DNA from: an uncultured Flavobacteriaceae bacterium | Lineage (GTDB): Bacteria; Bacteroidota; Bacteroidia; Flavobacteriales; Flavobacteriaceae | Length of the DNA stretch: 64,000 nucleotides | NCBI GenBank assembly: GCA_947502495.1 | Contig: CANNAC010000001.1 | Span: forward strand, 618,906-682,905 | Direction of reading: 5' to 3' | Shown: piece after piece, positions 32,746 through 47,976 of the stretch | Layout of the letters: every line of letters begins with the position of its first letter | Numbering within the stretch: the first letter of the stretch is position 1 | The notes under the pieces: generated by a model | What the model was told of the DNA's origin: nothing | Database searches by the model: none | What the model saw: only the letters and a program-made list of their open reading frames with translations | Translations under genes and position numbers: made by a program

Positions 32746-33255
32746 TTGTATATGGCAGATCCAGATAGTATATCCAATATTTTTGATTTTAAATCCAAAG
32801 AAGATACCAATAATTGGTATGTTATTAATGATGGTGTCATGGGAGGACTTTCTTCAAATTCCTTAGAAATTATGGCGGATGGAAAAGCACTATTTAAAGG
32901 TTCTGTAACTACAGAAAATAATGGTGGTTTTGCTTCCGTTCGATATGCTTTTTCTAAAAAAGAGGTTTCCAAGTTTACCCATATAGTACTGCGAATTAAA
33001 GGAGATGGTAAAGACTATCAATTCCGAATTAAAGAAGAACAACAGCAACGTCATTCTTATATTACTCCTTTTTCTACTTTAGGAAAGTGGGAAATCATTA
33101 AAATTTCGTTTTCCAAATTTTATCCCAGTTTTAGAGGAAACACATTAGACATTCCAAATTTTTCAGGAAAGTACATAGAAGAAATTGCATTTCTAATTGC
33201 TAATAAAACAAAAGAATCTTTTCAACTAGAAATAGAGTCTATTTTACTGGAATAA
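32746..33255 (+). CDS. CIA30 family protein
   Basis: WYVINDGVMGGLS, ENNGGFASVR, GDGKDYQF, FRG motifs. Confidence 0.9.
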   Translation: MYMADPDSISNIFDFKSKEDTNNWYVINDGVMGGLSSNSLEIMADGKALFKGSVTTENNGGFASVRYAFSKKEVSKFTHIVLRIKGDGKDYQFRIKEEQQQRHSYITPFSTLGKWEIIKISFSKFYPSFRGNTLDIPNFSGKYIEEIAFLIANKTKESFQLEIESILLE

Positions 33256-33523
33256 AAAAAATAAATGGGCAGAAATAACGAAAAATCTACACAAATATAA
33301 ATTCATGCTTTTTTCTTTTTGTTTGCTTTATAGTCTAAAATTGGATACAAGAAACGGAGTGTAATGGCCTAGTTTAAACCGAATACTCGGAATTTGGTGT
33401 TCCTTTCATCGTGTTTTTTTGAATAAAATTCCTGTTCATCGTGTATTTTTATAGTTCATAAGATTTTTTGTGCGCTATTGTGCTGAATATTATAGTTTTA
33501 ACCTCTTGAAACTATCAAATATT

Positions 33524-34156
33524 ATGAAAAGCTTAGTTACTATTTTTTGTTGTACCCTTTTTTTCGGAGCATGTCAAACGTTACATGCACAAGATTCTGC
33601 AGATAATTCTATAGCACTTACAATTAACATTCAAAAAGATTTCACGGATACGAATTCCGAAATAAAGGAATTTAGTAAAAATACAGATAGTGTTCCCGAT
33701 TTTAGGTTAAAAGAACAAAAAATTAAGATTGTTGGAACCATTTTTCAAGCCGATGGAATAACGCCTGCCAATAATATAACACTTTCTATATCGCAACCAG
33801 ATGAAGATGGTTATTATAGTATTCAAAAAGAGAAGGACAAACGTCATATATATCATAGCGCTTCTATAACAACGGATGTGGATGGTACGTATACTTTTTA
33901 CACTTTTATCCCTGGAACGGTACATAGAAGTGGCCATGTAAAGTCCATTCGTCCTGTTATAAAAGAAGAAGGGAAGGAAGCATATGAGCTAAACGCTTTT
34001 TATTTTGATAATGATCCTTTGCTAACTAAATATCGTATTAAACGATTAACTAAAAAAGGGCTAGATAAAAGTATTTTGAAATTAGAAAAAAAAGAAAATA
34101 TGTTTGTTGCAAATAAAGATATTATTCTTGGTAAAGATCTTCTAGACTGCAAATAA
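33524..34156 (+). CDS. Secreted intradiol dioxygenase-like protein, apparently degenerate
   Basis: GTIFQADGITP, QPDEDGYY, TDVDGTYTFYT..PG; iron-binding HIH motif not evident; ATG 33524 preferred. Confidence 0.65.
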   Translation: MKSLVTIFCCTLFFGACQTLHAQDSADNSIALTINIQKDFTDTNSEIKEFSKNTDSVPDFRLKEQKIKIVGTIFQADGITPANNITLSISQPDEDGYYSIQKEKDKRHIYHSASITTDVDGTYTFYTFIPGTVHRSGHVKSIRPVIKEEGKEAYELNAFYFDNDPLLTKYRIKRLTKKGLDKSILKLEKKENMFVANKDIILGKDLLDCK

Positions 34157-34183
34157 AAATAGGACTTTAAAACCTTATTATAT

Positions 34184-34216
34184 AAAACATCTTGAAACAA
34201 ACACAAGATGTTTTTT
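34184..34216 (+). terminator. Intrinsic terminator
   Basis: AAAACATCTTG/CAAGATGTTTT stem. Confidence 0.7.
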
Positions 34217-34367
34217 GCTTTAGTATCCTTTTTCTGGAGCTAAATATCCTAAAAAGTTAAATTTTGTTTTTTATCTAAATAATATTAAAACAGGCAGTAG
34301 AAAGAATATTCAGATAATATTCGTTTTATTTGTGTACAATTAATAGTAAAATAGATTAGAACCCATT

Positions 34368-35486
34368 ATGGCATCATTTTCAGAATTAGGTATTCATAAA
34401 AACTACGTGAAATCCTTAAAAGAATTAGGGATTAAAGCACCTACGGAAATTCAGGAACAAGCAATTCCTATTTTAATACAATCTAAAACAGATTTAGTAG
34501 GATTAGCCCAAACAGGTACAGGGAAAACTGCTGCCTATGGTTTGCCTGTTTTACATCGAATTAATCCTAAAAAACCAGAAATTCAAGCCTTAATTTTAGC
34601 ACCTACAAGAGAACTTGTACAACAAATTAAGAAACAACTCTTTAAATTTACCAAGTATAATGATGCTAAAATATTTTGCGAAGGTGTTTATGGAGGAGAG
34701 AAAATAGATATCCAAATTAAAAATTTAAAACGTACAACGCATATTATTGTTGCCACTCCGGGACGTTTGGTAGATTTAATAAATCGCGAAATTCTAGATT
34801 TAAAAAATGTAGAAACTTTAGTTTTAGACGAAGCAGATGAAATGCTAAGCATGGGTTTTAAAGAGGATTTAACAACCATTTTAAAAACGACTAAAAGCTC
34901 TAAAAACACCTGGTTATTTTCTGCAACAATGCCAGAATCTTTAAAAGATATTGTAAAACGTTATATTAAACCAGATGCTGTTCGACTGGAAATAGACAGA
35001 AACAGTTTGGTTAACGCTAATATTTCTCACTTTTTTGTAGAAACAACCATACAAAATAAAATAAACGTGTTAGTAACGCTATTAGAAGAGCGCGATGAAG
35101 AAAGAGGTATCATTTTCTGCAAAACAAAAGCTGGTACACAAGCTTTAACACATCAATTACAACAAGAAGGTTTTAGTGTTGGTGCTTTAGAAGGTGATAT
35201 GCAACAAAGAGAACGTGAAAAAGTAATGCGTGCTTTTAAAAACACAAGTGTTCAAATACTAATCTCTACAGATGTATCTGCAAGAGGAATAGATGTAAAT
35301 AATCTAGGTTATATTATTCATTATCAATTACCAGAACATCTAGAATATTATACACACAGATCTGGTAGAACAGCAAGAGCTGGAAAAACAGGAGAATCTA
35401 TTGCTTTGGTGTTATCTAACGAAGTTTCAAGAGTACATGAAATTGAAAAAGCACTAGGTATTAAAATGAAACAAAAAACAGTGTAA
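34368..35486 (+). CDS. DEAD-box RNA helicase (core only)
   Basis: Q motif, AQTGTGKT, PTREL, TPGRL, DEAD, SAT, ARGID, HRSGRTAR. Confidence 0.95.
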   Translation: MASFSELGIHKNYVKSLKELGIKAPTEIQEQAIPILIQSKTDLVGLAQTGTGKTAAYGLPVLHRINPKKPEIQALILAPTRELVQQIKKQLFKFTKYNDAKIFCEGVYGGEKIDIQIKNLKRTTHIIVATPGRLVDLINREILDLKNVETLVLDEADEMLSMGFKEDLTTILKTTKSSKNTWLFSATMPESLKDIVKRYIKPDAVRLEIDRNSLVNANISHFFVETTIQNKINVLVTLLEERDEERGIIFCKTKAGTQALTHQLQQEGFSVGALEGDMQQREREKVMRAFKNTSVQILISTDVSARGIDVNNLGYIIHYQLPEHLEYYTHRSGRTARAGKTGESIALVLSNEVSRVHEIEKALGIKMKQKTV

Positions 35487-35523
35487 ATAATTTCTAGTCA
35501 TTAGAAGTATTTAAAGTACGTAT

Positions 35524-36102
35524 TTGGAAGAACAAGATTTTATAGATGATTTAAGAGCAGGAAAGCAATTTGCCTATGGAAAGCTATTGGATTTATTTCA
35601 GCAAAAAGTATTCGCTACTTGCATCTCCTTTGTTCCAAATAAAGAGGATGCCGAAGATATTGCACAAGACGTTTTTGTAGAAGTTTTTAATTCGATACAT
35701 AAGTTTAAAGGAAACTCTAAATTATCTACTTGGATTTATAGAATCACTACCAATAAGTGTCTGGAATTTATTCGGAAAAAGAATACGAAAAAGCGTTTTG
35801 CGTTTTTACAATCGTTAACCGGAAATGATATTGCATTAGATAAAACAAATTACTTTACAGAGATAAATCATCCAGGAATTGTCTTAGAACAGAAAGAAAC
35901 TAGTGACACCTTATTTCTTGCAATTAATAAACTACCAGAAGCACAACGAATAGTATTTACATTAAATAAAATAGACGATAAAAGCTATAAGGAAATTAGC
36001 GAAATTACGGATAAAAGTATCAGTTCTATTGAGTCTTTATTGTTTAGAGCAAAGAAGAATTTACAAATCTCATTAGAACATTTTTATAAAAATGAAAAGT
36101 AA
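35524..36102 (+). CDS. ECF sigma-70 factor
   Basis: DAEDIAQDVF, STWIYRITTN (region 2); LPEAQR..FTL, SYKEISE, SLLFRAKK (region 4); TTG start. Confidence 0.93.
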   Translation: MEEQDFIDDLRAGKQFAYGKLLDLFQQKVFATCISFVPNKEDAEDIAQDVFVEVFNSIHKFKGNSKLSTWIYRITTNKCLEFIRKKNTKKRFAFLQSLTGNDIALDKTNYFTEINHPGIVLEQKETSDTLFLAINKLPEAQRIVFTLNKIDDKSYKEISEITDKSISSIESLLFRAKKNLQISLEHFYKNEK

Positions 36103-36133
36103 GCGCAAGTTTTTACAAATTTATGCATCTTAA
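36103..36133 (+). promoter_or_regulatory. Candidate ECF promoter P1
   Basis: GCGCAAGT-N15-CATCTTAA; CAAGT 36106-36110, CATCT 36126-36130. Confidence 0.7.
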
Positions 36134-36138
36134 TATAT

Positions 36139-36450
36139 ATGGAATCAAATAAAAACATACAAGAAAAAATAGATAACGCGTTTAAAGCTGCCGAAGCTAT
36201 AGAGCCAGTATCTGTATCTCCTTTTTTTAAAGATAAAACCATGCAACGAATGTTCTCTGTAAAAGAAGAAGAAAAAGTTGCTTGGTCTTGGTTCTCACCA
36301 AAATTACAGCTTGCTACTTTGGCTTGTGTGATTGTCATAAATGTAATAGCATTTACGCAAGTAAATAAAACAAGTTATGATGAGAATATTAATCAATTTG
36401 CAGAATCGTACGGTTTAAAGACTAGCGACTCTAACTCTTTATTAAATTAA
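36139..36450 (+). CDS. Putative anti-sigma factor (single TM)
   Basis: Directly downstream of the ECF sigma; short cytoplasmic N-terminus, VSPFFKDK, one TM. Confidence 0.6.
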   Translation: MESNKNIQEKIDNAFKAAEAIEPVSVSPFFKDKTMQRMFSVKEEEKVAWSWFSPKLQLATLACVIVINVIAFTQVNKTSYDENINQFAESYGLKTSDSNSLLN

Positions 36451-36983
36451 TGAATATGAAAAAAAATACCGTTTTATATATTTTACTTGTCTTTTTAGTC
36501 CTTTTTAATGGTTTTTTTCTTTTTAACTTTTTAGGAGAAATAAGTTCCGATAAAGGGAACGAAACGAAAGACCCAATGCGCTTTGTAAGGCAGCAATTAA
36601 ATTTGAGTGCATCGCAAATAGAAACTTTTGAAATTATAAACAAAGAACATCATCAAAAAATGAGGGGTTTTAATGATGATTTAAGAGGCTTAAAAGACGC
36701 GTTGTTTAATAATATTTCTGAAAATTCTTTAGATGAAGAAAGTGTCGACTCTATTGTAACCTTAATTGGTGAAAAGCAAAAGGTAAAAGAAATGGAAATT
36801 TATGATCACTTTAAAAGTATTCAAGAACTTTGTGATGCAAAACAAAAAGAAAAATTCAAGAAGATATTAAAAGATGCTATTCGTAGAGGTGATGGAAATA
36901 GACCTCCGCATCCAGAAGGTCAAAAAGGTCAAAAAGGTCGAGAAGGAAATGGGCATAGACCGCCTCCACCAAACGATTTTTAA
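36450..36983 (+). CDS. Spy/CpxP/ZraP-like periplasmic heavy-metal-sensor protein
   Basis: N-terminal TM, QLNLSASQ (LTxxQ-like), helical body, Pro/Gly-rich tail. Confidence 0.75.
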   Translation: MNMKKNTVLYILLVFLVLFNGFFLFNFLGEISSDKGNETKDPMRFVRQQLNLSASQIETFEIINKEHHQKMRGFNDDLRGLKDALFNNISENSLDEESVDSIVTLIGEKQKVKEMEIYDHFKSIQELCDAKQKEKFKKILKDAIRRGDGNRPPHPEGQKGQKGREGNGHRPPPPNDF

Positions 36984-36999
36984 TACCTAAATAATAAGT

Positions 37000-37032
37000 A
37001 AAAGACTCTTCCATAGGAAGGGTCTTTTTTTT
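37000..37032 (+). terminator. Intrinsic terminator
   Basis: AAAAGACTCTTCC/GGAAGGGTCTTTT stem (one G-U) plus T run. Confidence 0.8.
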
Positions 37033-37054
37033 GGCTTTTATTTAACAATAACCC

Positions 37055-37085
37055 GCACAAGTAATTTCAATTAATACCATCTAAA
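37055..37085 (+). promoter_or_regulatory. Candidate ECF promoter P2
   Basis: GCACAAGT-N15-CATCTAAA; CAAGT 37058-37062, CATCT 37078-37082. Confidence 0.7.
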
Positions 37086-37113
37086 AGTACATAACAAATA
37101 AAATATTACAATT

Positions 37114-37398
37114 ATGAAAAGTAGCACATTTAAAACAATAGTATTGGTTTTCGGACTAACAGTATGTATGTCAAATTCTAGTTTTGCACAATCGCAAGAC
37201 AGACAACAAAAGACACCTCCAACCTTTAGTGAGTTAGTAAAAGAAATGGATGCCAATGAGGATGGGAAACTTTCAGAAGATGAACTTAAAGGACCTTTAA
37301 AAGATAATTTCGATAAAATAGATACCGATGAAGATGGGTTTATTACAGAAGAAGAATTTGACAAAGCACCAAAACCAAAAGGTAGAGGAAAGAGCTAA
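37114..37398 (+). CDS. Secreted two-EF-hand protein
   Basis: Signal ending SFA-Q; loops DANEDGKLSEDE and DTDEDGFITEEE. Confidence 0.9.
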   Translation: MKSSTFKTIVLVFGLTVCMSNSSFAQSQDRQQKTPPTFSELVKEMDANEDGKLSEDELKGPLKDNFDKIDTDEDGFITEEEFDKAPKPKGRGKS

Positions 37399-37446
37399 AA
37401 AAAGTAGAAGATAGTTTTTTTGAGTGATTAGTAAATTGTTATTAAG

Positions 37447-37474
37447 GCTTCGTAAGTAATTACGAAGCTTTTTT
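37447..37474 (+). terminator. Intrinsic terminator
   Basis: GCTTCGTAA/TTACGAAGC stem plus T run. Confidence 0.75.
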
Positions 37475-37518
37475 AAAACTACAAAATGTAATAAATAATA
37501 GAATTAAAGAAAACAATA

Positions 37519-38235
37519 ATGAAACAAATAAAAAGAGGTATCCATTTTCTTTTTGTGTCTTTAACATGTAGCACTTCCTTACTAACTTTCCATGCTTGTA
37601 CTAGCGATGACGTTATTACAACAACAGTAGAAGAAGTAGACGACACCGATTTTGAACCAACAGATTGGACTACAATAACACATAGTAGTGATGTAGACCC
37701 CAATATGGAAGAGGTTTTTGATGACAACACCGTAAAAAAACTAGAAATTGTTATTACAGAAGCGCGTTGGCAAAGTATGCTAGAGGATATGACAGAAACC
37801 TATGGAGCATTTGGAGCAGGCGCAGCTACCAGAACAATGAATACCAAAGAAGGTTCGATTTTTGTTCCTGCTGGAGTATTCTATAAAGGACTAGAATGGT
37901 ACCGAGTTGGTGTGTCTTTTAAAGGGGATTCTAGTTTACAAAGTAGTTGGCAAAATGGGATTTTAAAACTATCCTTCAAATTAGATTTCGACTTGTTCGA
38001 TAAGGATTACCCACAAATAGAAAACCAACGCTTTTATGGTTTTAAAAAATTAAATCTTAACAATAATTTTGATAACAAATCCATGTTGCGGGAAAATGCA
38101 ATTAGTGATGTCGATAAAGATTCAGGAATGGTACCATCTTATACAGCTTTTTATAAAGTGTATATAAATCATGGAGATGGAACTGAGTATTTTGGTTTAT
38201 ATACTCTGGTGGAAGAAGTGGATGATACCGTTTAA
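37519..38235 (+). pseudogene. CotH-kinase-family lipoprotein, 3'-truncated
   Basis: Lipobox FHA-C; VGVSFKGDSSL, KLSFKLDFD, FYGFKKLNL, YFGLYTLVEEVD; stops immediately after this motif, before the DxD catalytic region. Confidence 0.7.
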
Positions 38236-38268
38236 CATAATTTCTATAGCTTTTCAAACAAATAAACA

Positions 38269-39018
38269 ATGAAGATATTCAGAAAAATAAGAAGAACTTT
38301 AATTGCTTCGGGTAAAACTAAAAGTTATATCATCTATGCTTTTGGAGAGATTCTATTAATTGTTATTGGGATATTAATTGCTTGGAAGATTAATAGTATA
38401 AATGAAATCCGAAAAAATAGAATTGTAGAAGTAAAAATATACCAAAGTTTAAATGAAGAGTTAAATACTAATTTAATACTATTAGATTCTTCTATTGTTC
38501 GCTATGCAAGAAATGTACAAACCATTCAAAACACAATAAAAAGTATTCGTTCGCAACCGCAGGAAATTACAGAAGAACTAAAAGAAGGAATTATTAATGT
38601 TAAGTTTCAGTCCACAAAACTGCAAAGTGCATCTATAAACTCGGTAAGTAGTACCAACAAATTTGAATTTATTAAAAGTGACTTACTAAGAGATTTAATT
38701 GCTTCGTACCCAAATGAGTTAAATAATTTTGAAAACCAAGATGCTAAAATCGGAAATATTATTATAAACCGTTTGCAGCCAGTAATAGAATCTCATGTTT
38801 CATTAATTGATATTTTATTAAATCGGGAATCAAAATATAATAAAAATACTTCTTTTTCGGGAACATCCGATTATGTAAAACTATTAAACAATAGAGCATA
38901 CCAAAATGTATTGGTAGACAGGCTAATACAAACAGAAAATCAATTGATAATTGGTAATAACTTAAGAGACAAAACACAAATAATAGCTTATAAGCTGAAT
39001 AAAGAATTAGGTAATTAA
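38269..39018 (+). CDS. DUF6090-like protein
   Basis: MKIFRKIRR..YAFGEILLIVIGILIAWKINSINE N-terminal signature. Confidence 0.8.
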   Translation: MKIFRKIRRTLIASGKTKSYIIYAFGEILLIVIGILIAWKINSINEIRKNRIVEVKIYQSLNEELNTNLILLDSSIVRYARNVQTIQNTIKSIRSQPQEITEELKEGIINVKFQSTKLQSASINSVSSTNKFEFIKSDLLRDLIASYPNELNNFENQDAKIGNIIINRLQPVIESHVSLIDILLNRESKYNKNTSFSGTSDYVKLLNNRAYQNVLVDRLIQTENQLIIGNNLRDKTQIIAYKLNKELGN

Positions 39019-39034
39019 AAATAAGTACTAGAAA

Positions 39035-39065
39035 GCACAAGTTTTTTGATAATAACACATCTAAA
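39035..39065 (+). promoter_or_regulatory. Candidate ECF promoter P3
   Basis: GCACAAGT-N15-CATCTAAA; CAAGT 39038-39042, CATCT 39058-39062. Confidence 0.7.
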
Positions 39066-39091
39066 GATTAAATCAATAATATCATTCCAAT

Positions 39092-39628
39092 ATGAATAAC
39101 AACAACTTAAAAACAACCATAACCATATTTAGCATGTTACTATGTTTTAGCCTTTTTGCGCAAGGACCTCCAGGAGGCGGACAAGGTGGTAGAGGCGGTG
39201 GAAAAGGACAGCAAAGAGAAAAACCAGATGCATCCGAAATTCTAGACAAACTAGATACCAATAGAGATAACCTTATTGATAAAGACGAAGCTGCTGCAGA
39301 TAAACGTGGAAAAATTGCAGAAGATTTTTATGAAATAGATACCAATGATGATGGGTTTATTGATTTAGAAGAACTGAAAGATTCTTTAAACGACAGAAAG
39401 AAACCGAAGAAAATTTCCGCTAAAAAAATAATAGAGGAAGTAGATGATAATGGAGATGAAACCTTAAACGAATTAGAGGTTGCAGCAAAAGGAAAGAAAG
39501 CACTTTTTGAGAATTTTAGAGAAATAGATACGAATGAAGATGGAGAACTGGATCTAGAAGAACTAAAAGTGTTTTTCAAAAAAGATGCGGATGACGATAA
39601 AAAATCAAAGCGTAAAAAAAGAGATTAA
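39092..39628 (+). CDS. Secreted four-EF-hand protein
   Basis: Signal ending LFA-Q; Gly-rich linker; loops DTNRDNLIDKDE, DTNDDGFIDLEE, DDNGDETLNELE, DTNEDGELDLEE. Confidence 0.9.
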   Translation: MNNNNLKTTITIFSMLLCFSLFAQGPPGGGQGGRGGGKGQQREKPDASEILDKLDTNRDNLIDKDEAAADKRGKIAEDFYEIDTNDDGFIDLEELKDSLNDRKKPKKISAKKIIEEVDDNGDETLNELEVAAKGKKALFENFREIDTNEDGELDLEELKVFFKKDADDDKKSKRKKRD

Positions 39629-39637
39629 TTATTCAAA

Positions 39638-40738
39638 ATGGGTAAAATGAGAAATGTATATAAAGCAGTAACCATAGTGTTAATGGGTATATTTGTTGGT
39701 TGCAAAAGCAATTCACATAGTCATGATGGTTCCGAAGCGCATACACATGCTACGGATTCTAAATCTATAAATAATACAGATTATTTTGGGGAGTACGATC
39801 TAGAAGATGCAAGTTATGGTACAAAAACAAAAGTAACTATTAAAGGCGATCAACGTGTAATGGTAACAAATGCATTACCAAATCATAAAACTGGGGAGTT
39901 TCCAAATTCAGGAAACCCTAATACCATTTCGGTACAAAATAAAACCTATAGTTTTCCTGTAAATCCAAAATATAAAGGAAATGCAAAATGGGTAAGAGAG
40001 CCTGGTGTGGCTTTAAATGGAATAAAATTCGAACCAGGAACTGCCGAAGTTGTAGTTTGTGATACCGGCGAAAACTATCGTGTGGAAGCGCTTCAAGATG
40101 TTATTGATCTGGGATTAGATTTTAATCATGCACATGTACAACCAACTGGTGCATACCATTATCATGGTACACCAACTTCTGTTATTGCAGATTTTGATAG
40201 CGGACAAGATTTAGTGCATGTTGGATTTGCGCATGATGGTTTTCCTATGTATTACTCCAAAAGTGGTAAATATAAACCAAGCTACAAACTTTTAGACGGA
40301 GACCGAGAAGGCGAAGATTGTACATACAGTACGCATAAAACTATTGACATTTCTGTAGGTGGACATCATGATGGAACCTATGGTTCCGATTTTGAATATG
40401 TAGAAGATTCAGGTGATTTAGATGCTTGTAACGGAATTACTATAGATGGAAATTATATGTATTTAGTGACTACCGAATTTCCATACATCAGCAGATGTTT
40501 AATGGGCGATTATGAAGAAGCTAGGCCTCAAGGTGCTGAAGGAAGAAGAGCAAATGGAGGAAATGGAGGACGTCCAAATATTTCAGAATTAATTAGTGAA
40601 ATGGATACGAACAAAGATGGAAAACTATCCAAGGAGGAAGTGAAAGGACCGCTAGCCGAGGATTTTTCAAAAATAGATTTGAATAAAGATACGTTTCTTA
40701 CTAAAGCCGAATTGGAAAAAGGACAAAGTAAACGCTAG
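39638..40738 (+). CDS. YHYH-domain lipoprotein with His-rich N-terminus and two C-terminal EF-hands
   Basis: Lipobox FVG-C; SHSHDGSEAHTH; NALPNH, GVALNG, GAYHYHG, GDLDACNG; DTNKDGKLSKEE and DLNKDTFLTKAE. Confidence 0.88.
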   Translation: MGKMRNVYKAVTIVLMGIFVGCKSNSHSHDGSEAHTHATDSKSINNTDYFGEYDLEDASYGTKTKVTIKGDQRVMVTNALPNHKTGEFPNSGNPNTISVQNKTYSFPVNPKYKGNAKWVREPGVALNGIKFEPGTAEVVVCDTGENYRVEALQDVIDLGLDFNHAHVQPTGAYHYHGTPTSVIADFDSGQDLVHVGFAHDGFPMYYSKSGKYKPSYKLLDGDREGEDCTYSTHKTIDISVGGHHDGTYGSDFEYVEDSGDLDACNGITIDGNYMYLVTTEFPYISRCLMGDYEEARPQGAEGRRANGGNGGRPNISELISEMDTNKDGKLSKEEVKGPLAEDFSKIDLNKDTFLTKAELEKGQSKR

Positions 40739-40802
40739 AAAAGGCTTTTAGGCGCAAAAAAAGAGGAAAAGCAAAAAGTCTCAAAAATTATTTTAAAAAA
40801 TA

Positions 40803-40833
40803 ACGCAAGTTAATTTCACTAAAGACATCTAAA
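40803..40833 (+). promoter_or_regulatory. Candidate ECF promoter P4
   Basis: ACGCAAGT-N15-CATCTAAA; CAAGT 40806-40810, CATCT 40826-40830. Confidence 0.7.
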
Positions 40834-40857
40834 TATCAAATACTAAAAATTTATACT

Positions 40858-41628
40858 ATGAAAAACTTATTTAAATTAACATTTCTAGCACTGTTTTTAA
40901 TAACAGGATTCATTGCTTGCTCGAGCGATGACAGTAATTCTTTAGTCGATGGAGAAGAGGAAGAAGGAGGAGAAGAAGAAGTGGTAACAGAATTACATGC
41001 AGCATACGCAGCATTTAATACCGAAGCTGTAGATATTTATTTATCTAATGATGGCGCATCTGTAACGATAGAAACCACTGGTTTACCAAATCACGAAACC
41101 GTGTATTGGGGAGAAGGTAATGCACTTTACAGAGCAGAACCAGATGTGGATTTAACACCATCTATTATGTCTAGTAATAACAATGCAGTAAGTATTACTG
41201 TAGATGCTGTGCCAGATTTAACAGGTAGCACAGTAAGTACCAATTTTGATACGATAGGTATTGCCGTTAGTGGAGCATCTATTTTTAATGATCAAGAAGG
41301 TGGCGGTGCTTTAGATGCAGCAGCGGCTAGTTTAGATTGGACGGGAGCACACATTGGCCCTGGAGTTTACCACTACCATTTAGAGCCTAAAGCATTTTCA
41401 GATGACGATGAAAATCTAGTTGGTGTATTATTAGATGGCGTTTTTCTTTACGGAAGAAAGTGTAATGCAGCAGGATCTTATCCTTCAGATTTAGATGCAT
41501 CAGGTGGTCATACAACTGCTACGCAATATACAGATGGTCAAGAAGAATACCATTACCATATTATTAACGAATTATATTCAAATACAGGTTCATATATCGC
41601 ATTTGCAGGACCTTACCAAGGATACTAA
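40858..41628 (+). CDS. YHYH-domain lipoprotein
   Basis: Lipobox FIA-C then SSDD; TGLPNH, IGIAVSG, GVYHYHLEP, DLDASGGH, EYHYH. Confidence 0.88.
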   Translation: MKNLFKLTFLALFLITGFIACSSDDSNSLVDGEEEEGGEEEVVTELHAAYAAFNTEAVDIYLSNDGASVTIETTGLPNHETVYWGEGNALYRAEPDVDLTPSIMSSNNNAVSITVDAVPDLTGSTVSTNFDTIGIAVSGASIFNDQEGGGALDAAAASLDWTGAHIGPGVYHYHLEPKAFSDDDENLVGVLLDGVFLYGRKCNAAGSYPSDLDASGGHTTATQYTDGQEEYHYHIINELYSNTGSYIAFAGPYQGY

Positions 41629-42246
41629 ATGAAAGCTTTTAAACTATATTTATTACTTATTTCTATTTTTCTTATTGCTTGTGACAGTACAACCAACAAG
41701 AAAGATATCACTGCTGGCGCTATAGCTAAAACGCAAATAGATACTGCTGCCGTGGTTAATAAAGATAGTTTAATTTTAAATGGAAATAAAGGAGTTTGGT
41801 CTTATAAAGATCAACCGTTTACAGGCTATGCGGTTCGATTCTATGCCAATGATTCTTTAAAAGAAAGAACAGGTTTTTTAAATGGTAAAAAACAAGGAGT
41901 CTATAACGTTTGGTTTGAAAACGGCGTTTTGAAATTAGAATCTAATTATAGTCACAATGTATTGGAAGGCATATACAAAACATGGTGGAATAACGGTGTT
42001 TTAGCATCGGAAACTAACTATGTAAAAGGGAAAAAACAAGGGGTAGAACAAAAATGGTTTTCTAATGGGGAATTATCCAAAAAAAGCAATTTATTAGAAG
42101 GTAAAGAAGATGGTTTACAGCAAGCTTGGCTAGAAAACGGAAAGCTATATGTAAACTATGAAGCTAAAAACGGACGTATTTTTGGAATGCGTCGTGCGAA
42201 CTCTTGTTACCAATTAAAAGACGAAGTGGTTATTAGAAAAAAATAA
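41629..42246 (+). CDS. MORN-variant repeat lipoprotein (YwqK-like annotation)
   Basis: Lipobox LIA-C; tandem NGKKQGVYNVWFENG-type repeats. Confidence 0.85.
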   Translation: MKAFKLYLLLISIFLIACDSTTNKKDITAGAIAKTQIDTAAVVNKDSLILNGNKGVWSYKDQPFTGYAVRFYANDSLKERTGFLNGKKQGVYNVWFENGVLKLESNYSHNVLEGIYKTWWNNGVLASETNYVKGKKQGVEQKWFSNGELSKKSNLLEGKEDGLQQAWLENGKLYVNYEAKNGRIFGMRRANSCYQLKDEVVIRKK

Positions 42247-42250
42247 GCTT

Positions 42251-42916
42251 ATGAAAAATCTATTTATTATTACGCTAATCCTTTTTACAAGTTGTAATAC
42301 GGAAGTAAAAAAAGAAAATATTAAAGTTGTTGAAAATAGCAGAGTAGCTTATTTACCTTTTTATGATGACGAATCGTTTACGCCCAAATGGATAACTCCA
42401 AATACGGAAGAAGAAAAAACATTTCATAAAATCCCAGATTTTTCATTAACCAATCAATTAGGAGAAACGGTAAGTCAAAATACATTTGAAAATAAGATAT
42501 ATGTAACCGATTTCTTTTTTACTAGCTGCCCAGGTATTTGTCCGAAAATGACAGGTAATATGGCACTAATTCAGGAAGCATTCAAGGACGATAACGAGGT
42601 TTTATTATTATCGCATTCTGTAATGCCAACTACAGATTCTGTATCTGTTTTAAATACCTATGCTAAAACCTATGGAGTTATAGAGAATAAATGGCATTTG
42701 GTTACTGGAGATAAAAAGGATATTTATACCTTAGGAAGAGAGCAGTATTTTGTGGAAAATGATTTGGGAGAACCAAAAAATATAAACGATTTTTTACATA
42801 CCGAAAACTTTCTGCTAATAGATAAAAACAAGCACATTAGAGGCATTTATAATGGCTTAAATAGAGCTTCCGTAGCACAGTTAATTACCGATATAAAAGC
42901 ACTTAAAACGGAATAA
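42251..42916 (+). CDS. SCO1/SenC-family copper chaperone lipoprotein
   Basis: DFFFTSCPGICPKM (CxxxC) and FLHTENF conserved His. Confidence 0.93.
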   Translation: MKNLFIITLILFTSCNTEVKKENIKVVENSRVAYLPFYDDESFTPKWITPNTEEEKTFHKIPDFSLTNQLGETVSQNTFENKIYVTDFFFTSCPGICPKMTGNMALIQEAFKDDNEVLLLSHSVMPTTDSVSVLNTYAKTYGVIENKWHLVTGDKKDIYTLGREQYFVENDLGEPKNINDFLHTENFLLIDKNKHIRGIYNGLNRASVAQLITDIKALKTE

Positions 42917-42988
42917 AACAACCGATAATAGAATAAATGAAACGGATTACTTTTAAAAGCTTAGTTATTTTTATCTTAGAGCAATTAA

Positions 42989-45900
42989 ATGTATCCAATA
43001 ATGTCGAAAAAATTATTCTGTAAACTTTCTATTTTTTTATTTCTTTGTTCTTGTGCGACCTATAAAGCACAGTACAATACCAACACTTCAAATACTAGTT
43101 TTCCGGATAAAGAAATCGAGCATTCGTTCTATTTAATTGGGGATGGAGGTAATTCGCCTATGGGAGAATCTTCCAAAACACTACAAGCTTTTAAAGCGGA
43201 ATTGGCAAAAGCTACCAAAAATAGTACAGCACTTTTTCTAGGAGATAATATTTATCCGAAAGGATTACCTAAAGAAGAAGCGGAAGGTAGAGCACTTGCA
43301 GAACATCAGTTAAATATTCAAACGCAAACCACAGCAGATTTTAAAGGAAAGGCTATTTTTATTCCTGGAAATCACGATTGGTATAGCAACGGACTTAAAG
43401 GATTAAAACGCCAAGAGAAGTATATCGAGAATATTTTAGGTAAAGACACTTTTTTACCAGAAAATGGCTGTCCTATAGAAAAAATACATGTTTCCGATGA
43501 TGTCGAATTAATACTTATTGATACACAATGGTTTGTTACCAATTGGGATAATCATCCAACCATTAATGACGATTGTGAGATTAAGACTAGAGCATTGTTT
43601 TTTGACGAATACAGTAGTTTAATAAAAAAAGCTAGAGGTAAAACAACCATCGTAGCTCTGCATCATCCTATGTATACCAACGGTATTCATGGCGGTCAAT
43701 ATGATTTTAAAAGTCATATGTCACCTGTTCCTGTTTTGGGGTCTCTTAAAAATCTACTGCGAATCACTACTGGAGTTGCGAATGCAGATATACAAAACAA
43801 ACGATATAATGAATTAAGAAAACGACTGATAACTATTTCGCAAGAAAACAGTAAAATCGTTTTTGTTTCTGGGCATGAGCATAATTTACAGTATTTAGTA
43901 GAAGATAATTTACGTCAAATTGTAAGTGGTTCTGGTTCTAAAGTTACTGCTACTAGAAATGTTGGTGGTGGTCAGTTTTCTTACGGAACGCCAGGATATA
44001 CCAGATTAGATGTGTTTAAAGATGGTTCTTCATATGTACGTTTTTATTCGGTAGAAGACGATAAAATTGTATTTGAAACCGAAGTACTAAAGCCAGATAC
44101 AGATAAAACAGATACCATGTATCCGAAAACATTTCCGAAAGAAATGACTGCTTCTATTTATTCCGAAGAAGAAACCGATAAATCTGGTTTAACAAAATTT
44201 CTTTGGGGAGAAAGATATAGAAGTACCTACAGCACAAAGGTTACCGTGCCAACAGTAGATTTAGACACGCTTTTTGGAGGTGTAACTCTTGGTCGTCGTG
44301 GCGGTGGAACACAATCTAAATCCTTACGTCTTATTACTAAAGATGGGAAAAAACAATATGTAATGCGTGCCATGCGAAAACTTGGTACACAGTATTTACA
44401 AGCTGCATTTTTTAAAGATCAATATCTGGATGGTAAGTTCGACGATACCGCAGCAGAAGATTTAATTTTAGATGTATTTACGGGTTCGCATCCGTATGCA
44501 CTTTTTACGGTTGGTGATTTATCGGATGCTGCAGGCATTTATCATTTAAATCCAAAACTATATTATGTTCCGAAGCAAAATGCACTAGGAGATTATAACG
44601 AACAATTTGGGGATGCTTTATATATGATTGAAGAACATGCTTCTGATGGGCATGGAGATCAAGCAAGTTTCGGATTTTCGAATACCGTTTTAAGCACTAC
44701 AGATGTGATGAAAGAGCTTCATCAAGATGAAGATATGGTCATGGATGAAGCAGCTTATATTCGTGCGCGTTTATTCGATATGTTAATTGGCGATTGGGAT
44801 AGACATCAAGATCAATGGCGTTGGTTAGAGTTTAAAGAAAATGGTAAAAAAGTATACCGACCTTTACCAAGAGATAGAGATCAAGTGTTTTCTATCATGT
44901 CGGATGGTGCAATGCTAACCTCGGCCGTAGCTCTTATTCCTACCGCTAGATTGTTACGAAGATATGATGATGATTTAGTAGATGTTCAAGGTGTAAATGT
45001 AGAACCGTATCCTTTAGATATGGAATTTATTATGCAATCGGATAAAGGTGTTTGGGATGCCCAAGTAAAAGTCATTCAAGAAGGGGTTACCGATGCCGTT
45101 ATTGATACCGCTTTTTTAAATTTCCCAGAAGAAGTTAGGGGAGAAGTAACCGATAAAATTAAAGCAACTTTAAAAGCACGTCGCGCTAATCTTCAAAAAA
45201 TATCGGATAGATATTACGACTTGGTAAATAAATTCGCAGTTATAAAAGGTACAAATAAAGACGATTGGTTTGATGTGGAGCGTTTGTCTAACGGAAAAAC
45301 AAAGGTTACAGCATATCGAATTAAAGGTGGAGAAAAAGCAGATATATTTCATGAATGTATTTATGATAATGAGAAAACTAAAGAAGTATGGATTTATGGT
45401 TTAGATGACGATGATACTTTTCATGTCTTTGGAAAGGATACCAAAAACCAAATGCGTGTGCGTTTAATTGGCGGACAGAATAATGATGTATATAATATTG
45501 AAGAAGGAAAACGTATTACGTATTACGATTATAAGTCTAAAGAAAATACCATTATTACTAATAAAGGGCATCAAAAATTTTCAGACGATTACGAAACGAA
45601 TGTGTACGATTACAAGAAATTAAAAAATAATATAAATCAGATTATTCCAACCATTGGTTCGAATCCAGATGATGGCTTGAAAATAGGGGTTTCTAATACC
45701 TATACGGTTTATGGTTTTGAACGCAATCCTTTTACATCACAACATACACTTTCTGCTGCTTATTATTTTGCAACTAATGGTTTCGAATTGGATTATAAAG
45801 GAGAATTTGCTAATGTATTTAAAGGATTGAATTTCGGATTAGATCTTCATTTTAACAGTCCGAACTATTCAATAAACTTCTTTGATTATGGGAACTCTAC

Positions 45901-46702
45901 TCCAAATTTTGAAGCAGATGATAACGAGGCTTTCGATGTCGATTTAGATTATAACCGAGTTAAAATAAGAACATTTTTTGCGATGCCTTCTTTAGTATGG
46001 CGCGGACAATTAGGAGGTTATTTTAAAGTTGGTGTTTTATTTGAAAACAATGAAGTAGAAAGAACTAACGGACGATTTATTAACTCATTTATAGGAGATG
46101 GAAACGAAGTAAGTAACACTTTTTATGGTGCAGATGCTGCATATTCTTTTGAAAATAAAGACAATGAAGCATTCCCAACTTTAGGGATGCAATTTGGTTT
46201 ACAAGTTGGTTTTAAAAACAATATAGATTCTAATAAAGGATTTGGGTATATCATTCCAGAATTAGGTTTTGATTATAAATTAATCCCGAGTGGTAAATTA
46301 GTTTTGGCAACCAATTTTAGCGGTCATTTTAATTTAGGAGATAATTTTGAGTTTTATCAAGCAGCAACTTTAGGGGCAAATACTGGGTTACGTGGGTATA
46401 GAAACGAACGTTTTACCGGTAAAAGTGCATTTGTGCAGAGTACCGATTTACGTCTTAATTTTTTAAGTCTTAAAACCAACTTATTGCCAATAAGCCTTGG
46501 TGTTTATGGTGGTGCCGATTATGGTCGTATTTGGGTAGATAATGATTTGGTAGCAAATAGTTCTTATAATAGCGACAGTTGGAACACTTCCTTTGGGGGT
46601 GGTGTTTTTGTTACTATGGTAGAAATGTTTACTGCAAATGTATCTGCTTTTAATAGTGACGATGGGATGCGTTTCGCTTTTAAATTAGGCTTTGGGTTTT
46701 AA
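42989..46702 (+). CDS. Lipoprotein: metallophosphoesterase + kinase-like domain + C-terminal beta-barrel
   Basis: Lipobox LCS-C; GD, GDNIY, GNHDW, HH, GHEH phosphoesterase motifs; GDWDRH and DRD; amphipathic strands ending FKLGFGF. Confidence 0.85.
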   Translation: MYPIMSKKLFCKLSIFLFLCSCATYKAQYNTNTSNTSFPDKEIEHSFYLIGDGGNSPMGESSKTLQAFKAELAKATKNSTALFLGDNIYPKGLPKEEAEGRALAEHQLNIQTQTTADFKGKAIFIPGNHDWYSNGLKGLKRQEKYIENILGKDTFLPENGCPIEKIHVSDDVELILIDTQWFVTNWDNHPTINDDCEIKTRALFFDEYSSLIKKARGKTTIVALHHPMYTNGIHGGQYDFKSHMSPVPVLGSLKNLLRITTGVANADIQNKRYNELRKRLITISQENSKIVFVSGHEHNLQYLVEDNLRQIVSGSGSKVTATRNVGGGQFSYGTPGYTRLDVFKDGSSYVRFYSVEDDKIVFETEVLKPDTDKTDTMYPKTFPKEMTASIYSEEETDKSGLTKFLWGERYRSTYSTKVTVPTVDLDTLFGGVTLGRRGGGTQSKSLRLITKDGKKQYVMRAMRKLGTQYLQAAFFKDQYLDGKFDDTAAEDLILDVFTGSHPYALFTVGDLSDAAGIYHLNPKLYYVPKQNALGDYNEQFGDALYMIEEHASDGHGDQASFGFSNTVLSTTDVMKELHQDEDMVMDEAAYIRARLFDMLIGDWDRHQDQWRWLEFKENGKKVYRPLPRDRDQVFSIMSDGAMLTSAVALIPTARLLRRYDDDLVDVQGVNVEPYPLDMEFIMQSDKGVWDAQVKVIQEGVTDAVIDTAFLNFPEEVRGEVTDKIKATLKARRANLQKISDRYYDLVNKFAVIKGTNKDDWFDVERLSNGKTKVTAYRIKGGEKADIFHECIYDNEKTKEVWIYGLDDDDTFHVFGKDTKNQMRVRLIGGQNNDVYNIEEGKRITYYDYKSKENTIITNKGHQKFSDDYETNVYDYKKLKNNINQIIPTIGSNPDDGLKIGVSNTYTVYGFERNPFTSQHTLSAAYYFATNGFELDYKGEFANVFKGLNFGLDLHFNSPNYSINFFDYGNSTPNFEADDNEAFDVDLDYNRVKIRTFFAMPSLVWRGQLGGYFKVGVLFENNEVERTNGRFINSFIGDGNEVSNTFYGADAAYSFENKDNEAFPTLGMQFGLQVGFKNNIDSNKGFGYIIPELGFDYKLIPSGKLVLATNFSGHFNLGDNFEFYQAATLGANTGLRGYRNERFTGKSAFVQSTDLRLNFLSLKTNLLPISLGVYGGADYGRIWVDNDLVANSSYNSDSWNTSFGGGVFVTMVEMFTANVSAFNSDDGMRFAFKLGFGF

Positions 46703-46712
46703 TCCCAATTTT

Positions 46713-47057
46713 TTATATCGCCATTTCTCCTTTTTCCGTAACTACAGAAACACCCCAATCAGCAATAGCTTGGATTAGCGGTATTAAAGTTTTACCAAAA
46801 TCGGTTAACGAATACTCTACTTTTAAAGGTGGTTTAGAAGTGTATACCTTTCTTTTTACTATGTCATCTTCTTCCAAAGTCTTTAACTGTAAGCTTAACG
46901 TGCGCTCGGTAACCGTAGGCATTTGTTTTCTTAATTCGCTGTATCGAAGGGTTTCATCTATTAAATGAAATAAAATGACAGTCTTCCATTTACCGCCAAT
47001 TATTCCCATGGTTAAACTTGCGCAACATGGGTATTCTTTTCCTTTAAATTGATACAT
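46713..47057 (-). CDS. HxlR-family winged-HTH redox sensor
   Basis: YPCC N-terminal Cys, IGGKWKTVIL, LRYSEL, PLKVEYSLT. Confidence 0.92.
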   Translation of the reverse strand: MYQFKGKEYPCCASLTMGIIGGKWKTVILFHLIDETLRYSELRKQMPTVTERTLSLQLKTLEEDDIVKRKVYTSKPPLKVEYSLTDFGKTLIPLIQAIADWGVSVVTEKGEMAI

Positions 47058-47129
47058 AATATATGGGATAAATTTTAATATGGATATTTACTAACGCTAC
47101 AAAGATATAATACTATATTTAATTACACA

Positions 47130-47146
47130 ACTATACTTTTTATAGT
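47130..47146. promoter_or_regulatory. Candidate HxlR operator 1
   Basis: Perfect ACTATA-N5-TATAGT in the divergent intergenic region. Confidence 0.65.
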
Positions 47147-47244
47147 AAAAATACATAGTTATAACACGTTGTATTTCAGCAGGTTGTAATAAAATTTATA
47201 TACTATCCTTTTTGACCGTTATTGTGAGTTTTAATAACTATACT

Positions 47245-47271
47245 TACTTTTGTCACTATAAAAAATATAGT
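47245..47271 (+). promoter_or_regulatory. -7 promoter element plus candidate HxlR operator 2
   Basis: TACTTTTG (47245-47252) immediately followed by ACTATA-N5-TATAGT (47255-47271). Confidence 0.7.
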
Positions 47272-47301
47272 ACATTAAGTAAAATCCTAAATATCATAAA
47301 A

Positions 47302-47976
47302 ATGAATACACCAAACATTGCAAAAGAAGATATATTAAACGCATTTAACTTTAGACATGCTACCAAAGAATTTGACGCTACTAAAAAAGTTTCCGATGAA
47401 GACATGAAATTTATCCTAGAAACAGCACATTTATCACCTAGTTCATTTGGTTTCGAACCTTGGCATTTTATTGTTGTTCAAGACAAAGAATTACGTGAGT
47501 TATTAAAACCTGTAGCTTGGGGAGCACCTTTAAAACTAGATACTGCAAGTCATTTTGTATTGGGTTTAAGCATGAAAGCACCAATGGTAAAACATGATGC
47601 AGATTACATTATGCACATGATGAAAGATGTAAAACAATTACCTGCAGATGTTATTGAAATGTATTCTAAATTCTATAGAGAATTTCAAGAAAATGATTTT
47701 GATTTAGATACAGATAAAAAGTTATTCGATTGGTCATCTAAACAAACCTACATTGCTTTAGGTAATATGATGACAGCTGCTGCTTTAACAGGAATTGATT
47801 CTTGTCCGATAGAAGGTTTTCATCAAGAAAAAGCAGAAGCATTATTAAAAGAGAAGTTTGGAGTAGATACCGATAAATATGGTTTATCCTTTATGACTGC
47901 TTTTGGGTATAGAAAAGCCGATCCAGAATTCGGAAAATCAAGACGTAATTTTGAAGATATCGTAACATTCAAGTAA
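47302..47976 (+). CDS. Nitroreductase-family NAD(P)H oxidoreductase
   Basis: FRHATKEFD, SPSSFGFEPWHF, GIDSCPIEGF, AFGYR; ATG 47302 is downstream of the promoter (track TTG 47212 is upstream of it). Confidence 0.92.
   Translation: MNTPNIAKEDILNAFNFRHATKEFDATKKVSDEDMKFILETAHLSPSSFGFEPWHFIVVQDKELRELLKPVAWGAPLKLDTASHFVLGLSMKAPMVKHDADYIMHMMKDVKQLPADVIEMYSKFYREFQENDFDLDTDKKLFDWSSKQTYIALGNMMTAAALTGIDSCPIEGFHQEKAEALLKEKFGVDTDKYGLSFMTAFGYRKADPEFGKSRRNFEDIVTFK

Follow-up and report, generated by a model that had tools for sequence, protein, structure and literature searches.

A predicted cell-envelope regulon of an extracytoplasmic function sigma factor with YHYH, EF-hand and SCO proteins in an uncultured Flavobacteriaceae bacterium

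The stretch analysed here (the window) comprises 64,000 nucleotides of contig CANNAC010000001.1 from an uncultured Flavobacteriaceae bacterium, and the locus described in this study lies at 35524-42916 (coordinates are window positions). It holds eleven open reading frames (ORFs), all on the plus strand, which encode an extracytoplasmic function (ECF) sigma factor, two candidate partners of this factor and a series of exported proteins, among them two lipoproteins of the YHYH family (PF14240). An earlier note made from the letters of the DNA had described ten co-oriented genes; the common orientation was confirmed but the count is eleven, and its domain calls were confirmed by Pfam and NCBIfam. 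The features of the locus are the following.

35524-36102, plus strand: ECF (group 4) sigma factor, 192 aa, TTG start; Sigma70_r2 and r4_2 matches, E about 5e-16
36139-36450, plus strand: putative anti-sigma factor, 103 aa, with a single transmembrane (TM) helix; named from position and architecture, without a family match
36450-36983, plus strand: Spy/CpxP/CnrX-like periplasmic protein, membrane-anchored, 177 aa; PF13801 at 26.0 bits (cut-off 29.2)
37000-37038, plus strand: intrinsic-terminator-like hairpin after the Spy-like gene, 13-bp stem and T run
37114-37398, plus strand: EF1, secreted, 94 aa, one EF-hand pair (EF-hand families; loops 37249-37284 and 37321-37356)
37447-37474, plus strand: terminator-like hairpin and T run 3' of EF1, read from the sequence
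37519-38235, plus strand: truncated CotH lipoprotein, 238 aa, matching CotH profile positions 2-92 of 322
38269-39018, plus strand: DUF6090-like single-pass membrane protein, 249 aa; PF19578 at 20.7 bits (cut-off 23.5)
39092-39628, plus strand: EF2, secreted, 178 aa, four EF loops (EF-hand families) and a Gly/Pro-rich N-terminus
39638-40738, plus strand: YHYH_EF lipoprotein, 366 aa, a YHYH domain (PF14240, E=1e-52) and a C-terminal EF-hand pair
40858-41628, plus strand: YHYH2 lipoprotein, 256 aa; PF14240 at 32.6 bits
41629-42246, plus strand: MORN_2 (YwqK-like) repeat lipoprotein, from a MORN_2 match
42251-42916, plus strand: SCO1/SenC lipoprotein; PF02630 at 87.8 bits, CPGIC at residues 93-97 and His183

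In the translations, five proteins show a lipobox, two a Sec signal peptide and three an N-terminal membrane anchor; ten of the eleven thus carry an export feature, and the claim of export signals in nearly all of them was correct. The co-orientation of the cluster carries no weight, because the plus strand encodes about 59 of the window's 65 non-overlapped ORFs of 100 aa or more. This strand bias (about 91% of such ORFs) is accompanied by a cumulative GC skew that climbs monotonically across 1-64000, and the window therefore appears to lie within one replichore, with the plus strand as the leading strand.

A promoter-like motif joins most of these genes. The pattern CAAGT-N15-CATCT is present in four plus-strand copies, at 36106, 37058, 39038 and 40806, as compared to 0.74 copies expected over both strands of the whole window, and all four are intergenic, 8-31 nt before the starts of the anti-sigma-like, EF1, EF2 and YHYH2 genes. 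When a 17-base consensus derived from the sites of relatives, CRCAAGTTT-N13-CATCTAAA, was allowed up to three mismatches, just these four sites were returned from the 64 kb, in agreement with the suggestion that four units of the cluster share one motif.

P1, 36104-36133, plus strand: promoter-like site (CGCAAGTTTTT...GCATCTTAA) between the sigma and anti-sigma-like genes
P2, 37056-37085, plus strand: promoter-like site upstream of EF1
P3, 39036-39065, plus strand: promoter-like site upstream of EF2, a perfect match to the consensus
P4, 40804-40833, plus strand: promoter-like site upstream of YHYH2

The predicted transcription units are the anti-sigma-like and Spy-like genes, EF1, EF2 with YHYH_EF, and YHYH2 with the MORN and SCO genes; the CotH fragment and the DUF6090 gene sit between units and lack the motif. 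The sigma factor gene, which starts 37 nt after a DEAD-box helicase gene, also has no motif upstream of it in the window. At P1 the conserved A located 9 nt past CATCT is the A of the ATG at 36139, and the mRNA would therefore be leaderless or nearly so. A match on the minus strand at 15495 has a 14-nt spacer and was treated as chance. Rfam found no RNA families in 34000-47500, and the metatranscriptome search gave one 240-nt contig, which covers 41076-41315 in YHYH2; the other sequence runs with the locus were all metagenomes.

The conservation of the cluster was examined by a scan of one genome per species with YHYH_EF, which gave 80 loci (L numbers below), almost all from marine Flavobacteriaceae; the proteins of the window were searched by tblastn, and 63 of the 80 loci had full flanks of 10 kb on each side. 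Most loci have a common gene order, ECF, anti-sigma-like, Spy-like, EF1, (CotH), (DUF6090), EF2, YHYH_EF, YHYH2, MORN and SCO, and in the full-flank loci all 349 gene matches are on the strand of YHYH_EF. The regulatory trio is present in 53 of these 63 loci, YHYH2-MORN-SCO likewise in 53, and both in 50, which is the conserved co-occurrence that the gene-neighbourhood check proposed in the earlier note was to look for. At least 14 genera keep the gene content, order and motif, but not the flanks: the flanking genes of the window are common to only four loci, in Oceanihabitans and three Lacinutrix. Culturable relatives with the complete cluster are found, for example, in Winogradskyella, Olleya, Lacinutrix and Polaribacter. 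Up to four further YHYH paralogues per locus (up to five or six in total) are found in relatives, together with VTC-domain proteins, a Cthe_2159 carbohydrate-binding protein, an arylsulfotransferase and an MbnH/MauG-like di-haem enzyme.

The motif follows the genes. Over 1.6 Mb, made up of the 80 loci and the window, the core AAGT-N15-CATCT has 259 copies on the cluster strand and 12 on the opposite strand. It lies 5' of the anti-sigma-like gene in 54 of 59 loci, of the EF1 orthologue in 43 of 48, of the YHYH2 orthologue in 38 of 59 and, elsewhere than in the window, of the ECF sigma gene in 30 of 58 orthologous loci, and it also precedes YHYH_EF, EF2, both CotH types and the extra YHYH paralogues of relatives. 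An alignment of 192 sites shows near-fixation also at positions that the search pattern had left free (C in 95% at -3 and in 100% at -1, AAA after CATCT in 94-97%), and the A nine bases further on from the CATCT element is present in 85%. About ten cluster-strand copies several kb downstream in relatives fall inside conserved minus-strand coding sequence and were discounted as chance. A scan of metagenome contigs with the extended motif gave 42 matches, mostly chance, the only relevant ones being in L096/L100, 5' of a YHYH_EF-like gene, and in L101/L115, between the ECF and anti-sigma-like genes; the sigma factor of the L115 lineage is 50% identical to that of the window, and its motif is followed by Spy-like and MbnH-like genes. 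Four other contigs (L107, L111, L122 and L128) carry a near-identical motif-like sequence, CGCAAGTTTTGGACTTCA(G/A)ACAGCATCTAAA, 15 nt upstream of a 55-aa ORF; this sequence has no similarity to the cluster.

In L072 and L078, which are Bacteroidota outside the Flavobacteriaceae, the ECF/anti-sigma/CpxP-like trio again adjoins a YHYH gene, which favours one regulon. Zobellia galactanivorans keeps an effector core of an EF-hand protein, a YHYH protein, an N-terminal-His protein, YHYH2, MORN, SCO and DUF6090 without the ECF genes and the motif, flanked by LytTR two-component systems, and the effector module may therefore be older or more mobile than its regulator. Since synteny extends over loci with unconserved flanks and the shared motif is strand-specific, we regard it as very probable that the cluster is one genuine ECF regulon of the cell envelope, as the earlier note had supposed in calling it one system under an ECF sigma factor.

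The regulatory part is of a known kind, a CnrYXH-like arrangement that also resembles that of the ECF281 and ECF290 groups. Both domains of the sigma factor (Sigma70_r2 at residues 24-87 and r4_2 at residues 132-180) score above the Pfam cut-off, and the protein passes the sigma70-ECF model TIGR02937 with 95.8 bits against a cut-off of 42.9; its closest solved structures are SigW and RpoE, AlgU-type factors are also near, and CnrH is matched with E=1e-7. The 103-aa protein, conserved at position +1 of the sigma gene in 58 loci, has about 55 cytoplasmic residues with a conserved VSPFFKDKTMQ, the TM helix WSWFSPKLQLATL and a short periplasmic tail with a conserved FAESYGL; its position and architecture make it a putative anti-sigma factor. 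The 177-aa protein contains two LTXXQ-like motifs and the invariant residue His67, and its Gly/Pro/Arg-rich tail ends in RPPPP. Its L50..Q56 and ..Q132-KEKF segments align with the LTXXQ motifs of Spy, and a profile of 32 orthologues searched against the PDB gave Spy as the best match (E=1.3e-4), with marginal matches to CnrX (E=0.7) and NccX (E=1.1, which extends across the membrane anchor too). We consider this protein a candidate sensor or modulator of the anti-sigma factor. Its tail contains three tandem 9-nt units (AAGGTCAAA-like, 36900-36945) that code for QKGQKG, and a metagenome contig (run X8) lacks one unit at 36916, so the copy number varies in nature.

In CnrYXH of Cupriavidus metallidurans (ECF291), an ECF sigma factor is combined with a small single-pass anti-sigma factor and a membrane-anchored helical sensor of the PF13801/Spy superfamily; the periplasmic tail of the anti-sigma factor is docked in the sensor dimer, and binding of Ni or Co frees the sigma factor (PMC6851896). 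In both cases the cytoplasmic part of the anti-sigma factor, putative in the window, is about 45-55 aa and its periplasmic tail is short. The promoter of the anti-sigma and sensor genes is itself a target of the sigma factor in CnrYXH, and it is predicted from the motif to be one here. The gene order is Y-X-H in that system and sigma, anti-sigma, sensor here, the sigma factor of the window is nearer to SigW and RpoE than to CnrH, and the similarity of the sensor to CnrX and NccX is marginal. CnrYXH drives metal efflux (CnrCBA, a resistance-nodulation-division operon, and CnrT), whereas the genes here encode exported YHYH, EF-hand and SCO proteins, and the locus falls outside CnrYXH proper on two counts, the ligand set and the efflux targets. 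In the ECF281 and ECF290 groups of ECF classification 2.0, the ECF gene is followed by an anti-sigma gene (+1) and by a gene for a PF13801 protein (+2), an order that the locus resembles. The authors of the classification describe both groups as apparently linked to heavy-metal stress and report no regulon with such a content (PMC7826278). Their anti-sigma factors are zinc-finger or RskA-like, whereas the +1 protein here matches no anti-sigma model. The CpxP/CpxA, Spy and ZraP/ZraSR systems share the helical periplasmic protein of the LTXXQ type but use a histidine kinase, whereas the Spy-like protein of the locus is membrane-anchored and paired with a putative ECF anti-sigma factor. Modulators of the CpxP/Spy/ZraP type are induced by the pathway that they modulate, which gives negative feedback. 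Weighing these likenesses, which the earlier note had passed over for CnrYXH, we lean slightly towards a three-protein switch that works in the manner of CnrYXH.

The main products of the regulon are the YHYH proteins. The family comprises about 1600 representative clusters at 50% identity, with members in bacteria, diatoms and giant viruses and among the tail proteins of cyanophages; YHYH_EF has more than 2000 homologues, named only "YHYH protein". YHYH_EF reaches 179.3 bits and YHYH2 32.6 bits against the PF14240 cut-off of 25. Alignments of 55 and 117 diverse members showed that D161, H166, Y173, H174, H176, D200 and D262 (YHYH_EF numbering) are invariant and that H83 and C264 are nearly so, and D161, H166, H174, H176 and D200 are present in both proteins of the window. 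For this "enigmatic" domain a metal site of three His and one Asp and a role as metal-dependent hydrolase had been predicted (PMC7824862); the invariant residues agree with this predicted site, and a putative His-ligated metal site is plausible. After its lipobox Cys22, YHYH_EF has a His-rich tail, HSHDGSEAHTH (HxH...HxH), conserved in its orthologues. In YHYH2, Cys21 is followed by an acidic stretch; the protein has two YHYH motifs and one further Cys (C202), which is invariant and free. Full-text literature searches returned no tested function for YHYH, only the prediction of PMC7824862. Sequence and profile searches of the PDB gave no match to the domain at E<=10 and no solved structure, and Foldseek found no fold match for the YHYH part in the PDB and only viral YHYH proteins in BFVD. 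Several observations were made on the wider family: P0361 (1631 aa) and P0387 (3085 aa) are giant YHYH proteins, one of them with 11 separate YHYH-matching stretches; in P0257, P0271, P0299 and L132, YHYH is fused to or beside formylglycine-type sulfatases, at times with SLH cell-wall anchors; and in L083 a distant YHYH gene lies 3-6 kb from a CopCD/multicopper-oxidase/CueR/CopA island, which is an anecdote only.

The genes packed next to YHYH2 bear on the metal. The start codon of the MORN gene abuts the stop codon of YHYH2, the SCO gene is translationally close-packed with both, and the same packing is seen in 53 of the 63 full-flank loci, with SCO present in 60 of the 80 loci. The SCO protein has the CxxxC motif, the distal His (His183, 86 residues after the second Cys of CPGIC) and the periplasmic-side lipid anchor of the PF02630 proteins of cytochrome oxidase assembly, but it is packed with the YHYH2 and MORN lipoprotein genes and has no cox genes or PCuAC partner nearby. 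Every extra YHYH gene of the relatives precedes a gene for a protein of about 200 aa with a mature N-terminal His and a C-terminal membrane anchor, which matches DUF6702 weakly, below the Pfam cut-off, and has no counterpart in the cluster of the window. The following pairs of a YHYH lipoprotein and an N-terminal-His protein are examples.

L007, 4901-8128: predicted cleavage FA|HQPE..
L001, 11576-13231: predicted cleavage FA|HNPL..
L082, 9231-9860: predicted cleavage SA|HSSQ..

For one member of DUF6702, tight binding of Ni, Co and Cu has been reported (PMC12537917). Two further loci have a gene for a di-haem MbnH-like enzyme after the Spy-like gene.

L040, 7136-8293: about 256 bits (MbnH cut-off 363), preceded by its own regulon motif
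L115, 11982-13139, minus strand: about 256 bits (MbnH cut-off 363)

Both match protein-modifying enzymes of the MbnH/MauG type best, not canonical peroxidases. MbnH and the CorB partners mature surface copper proteins, and in the MopE/CorA with CorB and the MbnP with MbnH systems an exported or surface His-ligated copper protein is co-transcribed with a di-haem enzyme of the MauG family (PMC3912023, PMC11951088). Part of the likeness lies in the MbnH-like genes of the related loci L040 and L115; the window has none, no sequence or fold relation of YHYH to MopE, CorA or MbnP was detectable, and copper binding by YHYH is putative.

From these observations the following mechanism is proposed. The sigma factor would be held at the membrane by the 103-aa single-pass protein, as its architecture suggests, and in the periplasm the Spy/CpxP/CnrX-like protein would read the FAESYGL tail of this protein, much as CnrX does with CnrY. 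The signal that frees the sigma factor would come from the envelope and is most likely a transition-metal ion or metal-caused damage; the freed factor would then start transcription at the four CRCAAGTTT-N13-CATCTAAA promoters. P1 would place the anti-sigma and sensor unit under the sigma factor and so provide negative feedback, and half of the relatives, with a motif 5' of the sigma gene, are predicted to add positive autoregulation. The products would be exported or lipid-anchored. The YHYH proteins would be metalloproteins with a mononuclear site of three His and one Asp, loaded with the help of SCO, perhaps assisted by the His-rich N-terminal tail, and the metal is within this proposal probably copper, because SCO would help to load the site. 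In relatives, the N-terminal-His DUF6702-like and the MbnH-like di-haem proteins may take part. The EF-hand pairs would be calcium-stabilised structural or docking modules suited to seawater, and domain fusions point to cell-surface or extracellular, possibly sulfated, glycans as the ligand or substrate. A self-contained envelope ECF regulon that makes YHYH metalloproteins under a CnrYXH-like switch, with copper as the probable metal, is the best explanation of the whole that we can offer, held at a little short of even chances. The effector set is not described in the literature that was searched for YHYH, PF14240 and DUF6702.

Several points weigh against this explanation. The evidence for the four promoters and for their dependence on the sigma factor is conservation, and, since the effectors of Zobellia lack the ECF motif, the effectors are not tied to this sensor. 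The 103-aa protein has no match in Pfam, NCBIfam or the PDB and no known anti-sigma domain. The 177-aa protein is below the PF13801 cut-off, His67 is its sole invariant His among the 32 orthologues, and the CnrX ligand set (His42, His46, Glu63, His119 and Met123) is unrecognisable in it, as judged without a residue-level alignment to CnrX. Unlike known metal-responsive ECF regulons, the cluster contains no efflux pump, transporter or TonB receptor; for the relatives, tblastn of the 80 loci showed no transporter, and neither did Pfam scans of additional genes in a few of these loci, with only part of the ORFs covered in most loci. The AlphaFold2 model of YHYH_EF is of moderate quality (mean predicted local distance difference test score (pLDDT) 67.9, with the conserved loops below 50), that of YHYH2 has a pLDDT of 40, and neither gives a usable metal-site geometry. 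The contexts of distant YHYH genes are heterogeneous, with no single theme. SCO proteins can also act as thiol-disulfide oxidoreductases. Metal responsiveness of the system is plausible; a metal signal together with metalloprotein maturation is a tentative conclusion, not quite as probable as its opposite, and copper specifically, for which the evidence is mainly SCO with indirect hints from relatives, is possible but doubtful.

As compared to the explanation above, a regulon of glycan-active enzymes is the rival that survives best. The YHYH proteins would be catalytic modules (hydrolase, lyase or oxidase) acting on anionic or sulfated polysaccharides on the cell surface or beyond it, polymers that the regulon would serve to remodel or attack, with the EF-hands as calcium-dependent accessory modules and SCO supplying a cofactor or a redox function; it overlaps our preferred reading in part, as it names a substrate and does not deny the metal. 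Fusions among 117 diverse YHYH representatives include EF-hands in 7, SLH in 6 and sulfatase in 3, as well as CBM60, ricin-B lectin, BACON and SGL, and phage tail and lectin fusions have been reported together with the predicted role as metal-dependent hydrolase (PMC7824862). The glycan- and sulfatase-linked fusions do not figure in the earlier note. Fusions make up a small minority of the family, and the searches of solved structures gave no enzyme to which YHYH is related in sequence or fold. Genes near distant YHYH genes include a sulfatase (L132), GH16 (L086-L088) and TauE (L133), in relatives the motif precedes arylsulfotransferase and Cthe_2159 genes, and the identity of YHYH2 across genera, 73-88%, is as expected of an enzyme; but no SusC/SusD pair, glycoside hydrolase or polysaccharide lyase was seen in the 80 loci, as examined by similarity to the cluster. 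We know of no Bacteroidota polysaccharide locus under a Spy/CnrX-type ECF switch, which also counts against this rival. The pattern of fusions and neighbours is typical of extracellular glycan-active enzymes and is compatible with the metal thread, the two together describing a surface metalloenzyme with metallation helpers; the fusions suggest that YHYH may be a glycan-active metalloenzyme, while the glycan-enzyme regulon as an account of its own is unlikely, if still a serious candidate.

A general envelope-stress response of the Cpx or sigma-E type is less probable again. The Spy/CpxP-like protein would in this case be titrated by misfolded or oxidised periplasmic proteins, and the effectors would be protective, with SCO in thiol-redox chemistry, a di-haem peroxidase in some lineages and a stabilising role for the EF-hand and YHYH proteins. 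In the PDB the sensor profile does match the chaperone Spy best, with both LTXXQ-like motifs kept, the sigma factor is nearest to SigW, RpoE and AlgU-type envelope-stress factors, and SCO has weak matches to AhpC-TSA and Redoxin, both below cut-off. But the regulon is without a protease, a general chaperone or a gene for outer-membrane or lipopolysaccharide biogenesis, and it is dominated by one family, YHYH, with up to five or six paralogues per locus, and its partners, which argues for a dedicated function. The di-haem genes of L040 and L115, which belong to the cytochrome c peroxidase (CCP)/MauG family and could be taken to favour a stress role, match the MbnH/MauG type best and not the peroxidases.

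The earlier note had also proposed that the system buffers or templates calcium. The count of EF-hand loops on which this was built is accurate: the 12-residue pattern D-x-[DNS]-x-[DNS]-x-x-[ILV]-x-x-x-E gives exactly eight canonical loops in four pairs, split 2+4+2 over EF1, EF2 and YHYH_EF. The role is not sustained. Unrelated lineages also have YHYH proteins with fused EF-hand pairs (in 7 of 117 representative clusters), as if the pairs were a module of the protein itself, and the calcium bound by CorA/MopE, surface copper proteins of methanotrophs, has been interpreted as structural (PMC3912023). A structural or docking function is therefore preferred to buffering, as the pairs are recurrent appendages of YHYH and a structural precedent exists. 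Seawater contains about 10 mM calcium, which points the same way, since a few periplasmic EF-hand proteins cannot buffer such a concentration. Two further ideas, a dockerin-like nature of the EF-hand pairs and a copper site of Tyr, Cys and His like that of galactose oxidase, are pure speculation and are not claimed.

A wider form of the calcium idea has the EF-hand proteins handling calcium as a mineral, for example with phosphate or polyphosphate, helped by CotH and VTC proteins. A full-length CotH is present in the clusters of most relatives, as a lipoprotein of about 475 aa in about 37 of the 80 loci and as a 770-aa CotH-LTD-T9SS protein in 16, and the motif is upstream of CotH in 16 loci. 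The motif also stands before genes of the VTC domain (polyphosphate-polymerase type, by Pfam) in Polaribacter and Algibacter loci.

L036, 16985-17734: VTC gene with the regulon motif
L020, 6323-7015: VTC gene with the regulon motif

Motif-preceded ORFs of 248-249 aa in L041, L049, L062, L073 and L076 (Polaribacter) are presumed VTC homologues, and in L036 and L041 CotH is near VTC-type genes. In the window, the CotH presence that the earlier note reported is that of a fragment, and a part as an active kinase is not supported: the protein aligns to residues 1-243 of the 474-aa orthologue of L013, and no remainder was found downstream. The truncation is shared only with Lacinutrix himadriensis (L023, 8177-8890; both 237-238 aa, 71% identity), and it is old, the reading frame of the stump being still open. 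CotH is absent in the closest relatives L007 and L012, where the rest of the cluster is intact, and it appears to be a dispensable, decaying member in this lineage. The cluster of the window also has no VTC gene, and with CotH broken the mineral reading cannot apply to this genome; calcium or mineral handling as the function of the system is accordingly quite improbable. The DUF6090 gene, in contrast to its earlier treatment as a mere addition, is a conserved member, with orthologues in 22 of 80 loci and in Zobellia, where it overlaps the SCO gene by 4 nt; the PF19578 match covers only the N-terminal part of the protein.

That the locus is a chance neighbourhood of unrelated exported-protein genes on the leading strand, as about 90% plus-strand genes in the window might allow, is hardly credible, being contradicted by the synteny over at least 14 genera, the unconserved flanks and the strand-specific motif. 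Directly after SCO, at 42989-46702 on the plus strand, lies the gene for an exported protein of 1237 aa, which combines a calcineurin-like metallophosphoesterase domain at the N-terminus with an Omp85-like beta-barrel at the C-terminus; it is probably outside the regulon, because it is kept only in the four closest relatives. Upstream, at 32746-34156, lie genes for a CIA30-domain protein and for an exported protein whose intradiol-dioxygenase-like match is weak and at the cut-off; these too are conserved in the closest relatives only.

Taken together, the locus ties the YHYH family, with two genes here and up to six in relatives, to a promoter, to a trio of sigma factor, putative anti-sigma factor and candidate sensor, and to fixed partners (SCO, MORN, EF-hand and DUF6090 proteins), and the family thereby becomes experimentally approachable. 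The few ECF systems of the CnrX type would gain with it a regulon whose output is periplasmic and surface proteins and not an efflux pump. A bolder form of the proposal, which we consider a long shot, is that the YHYH proteins are extracytoplasmic enzymes of a new class, dependent on copper and possibly redox-active, which act on sulfated or anionic glycans, are governed by the CnrX-like switch and have a dedicated maturation pathway that would consist of SCO and MORN and, in relatives, of the N-terminal-His DUF6702-like and MbnH-like proteins. If this were true, the locus would give genetics its first access to a family that extends over bacteria, diatoms, giant viruses and cyanophages, and in a host group, the marine Flavobacteriaceae, that matters for the turnover of algal carbon.

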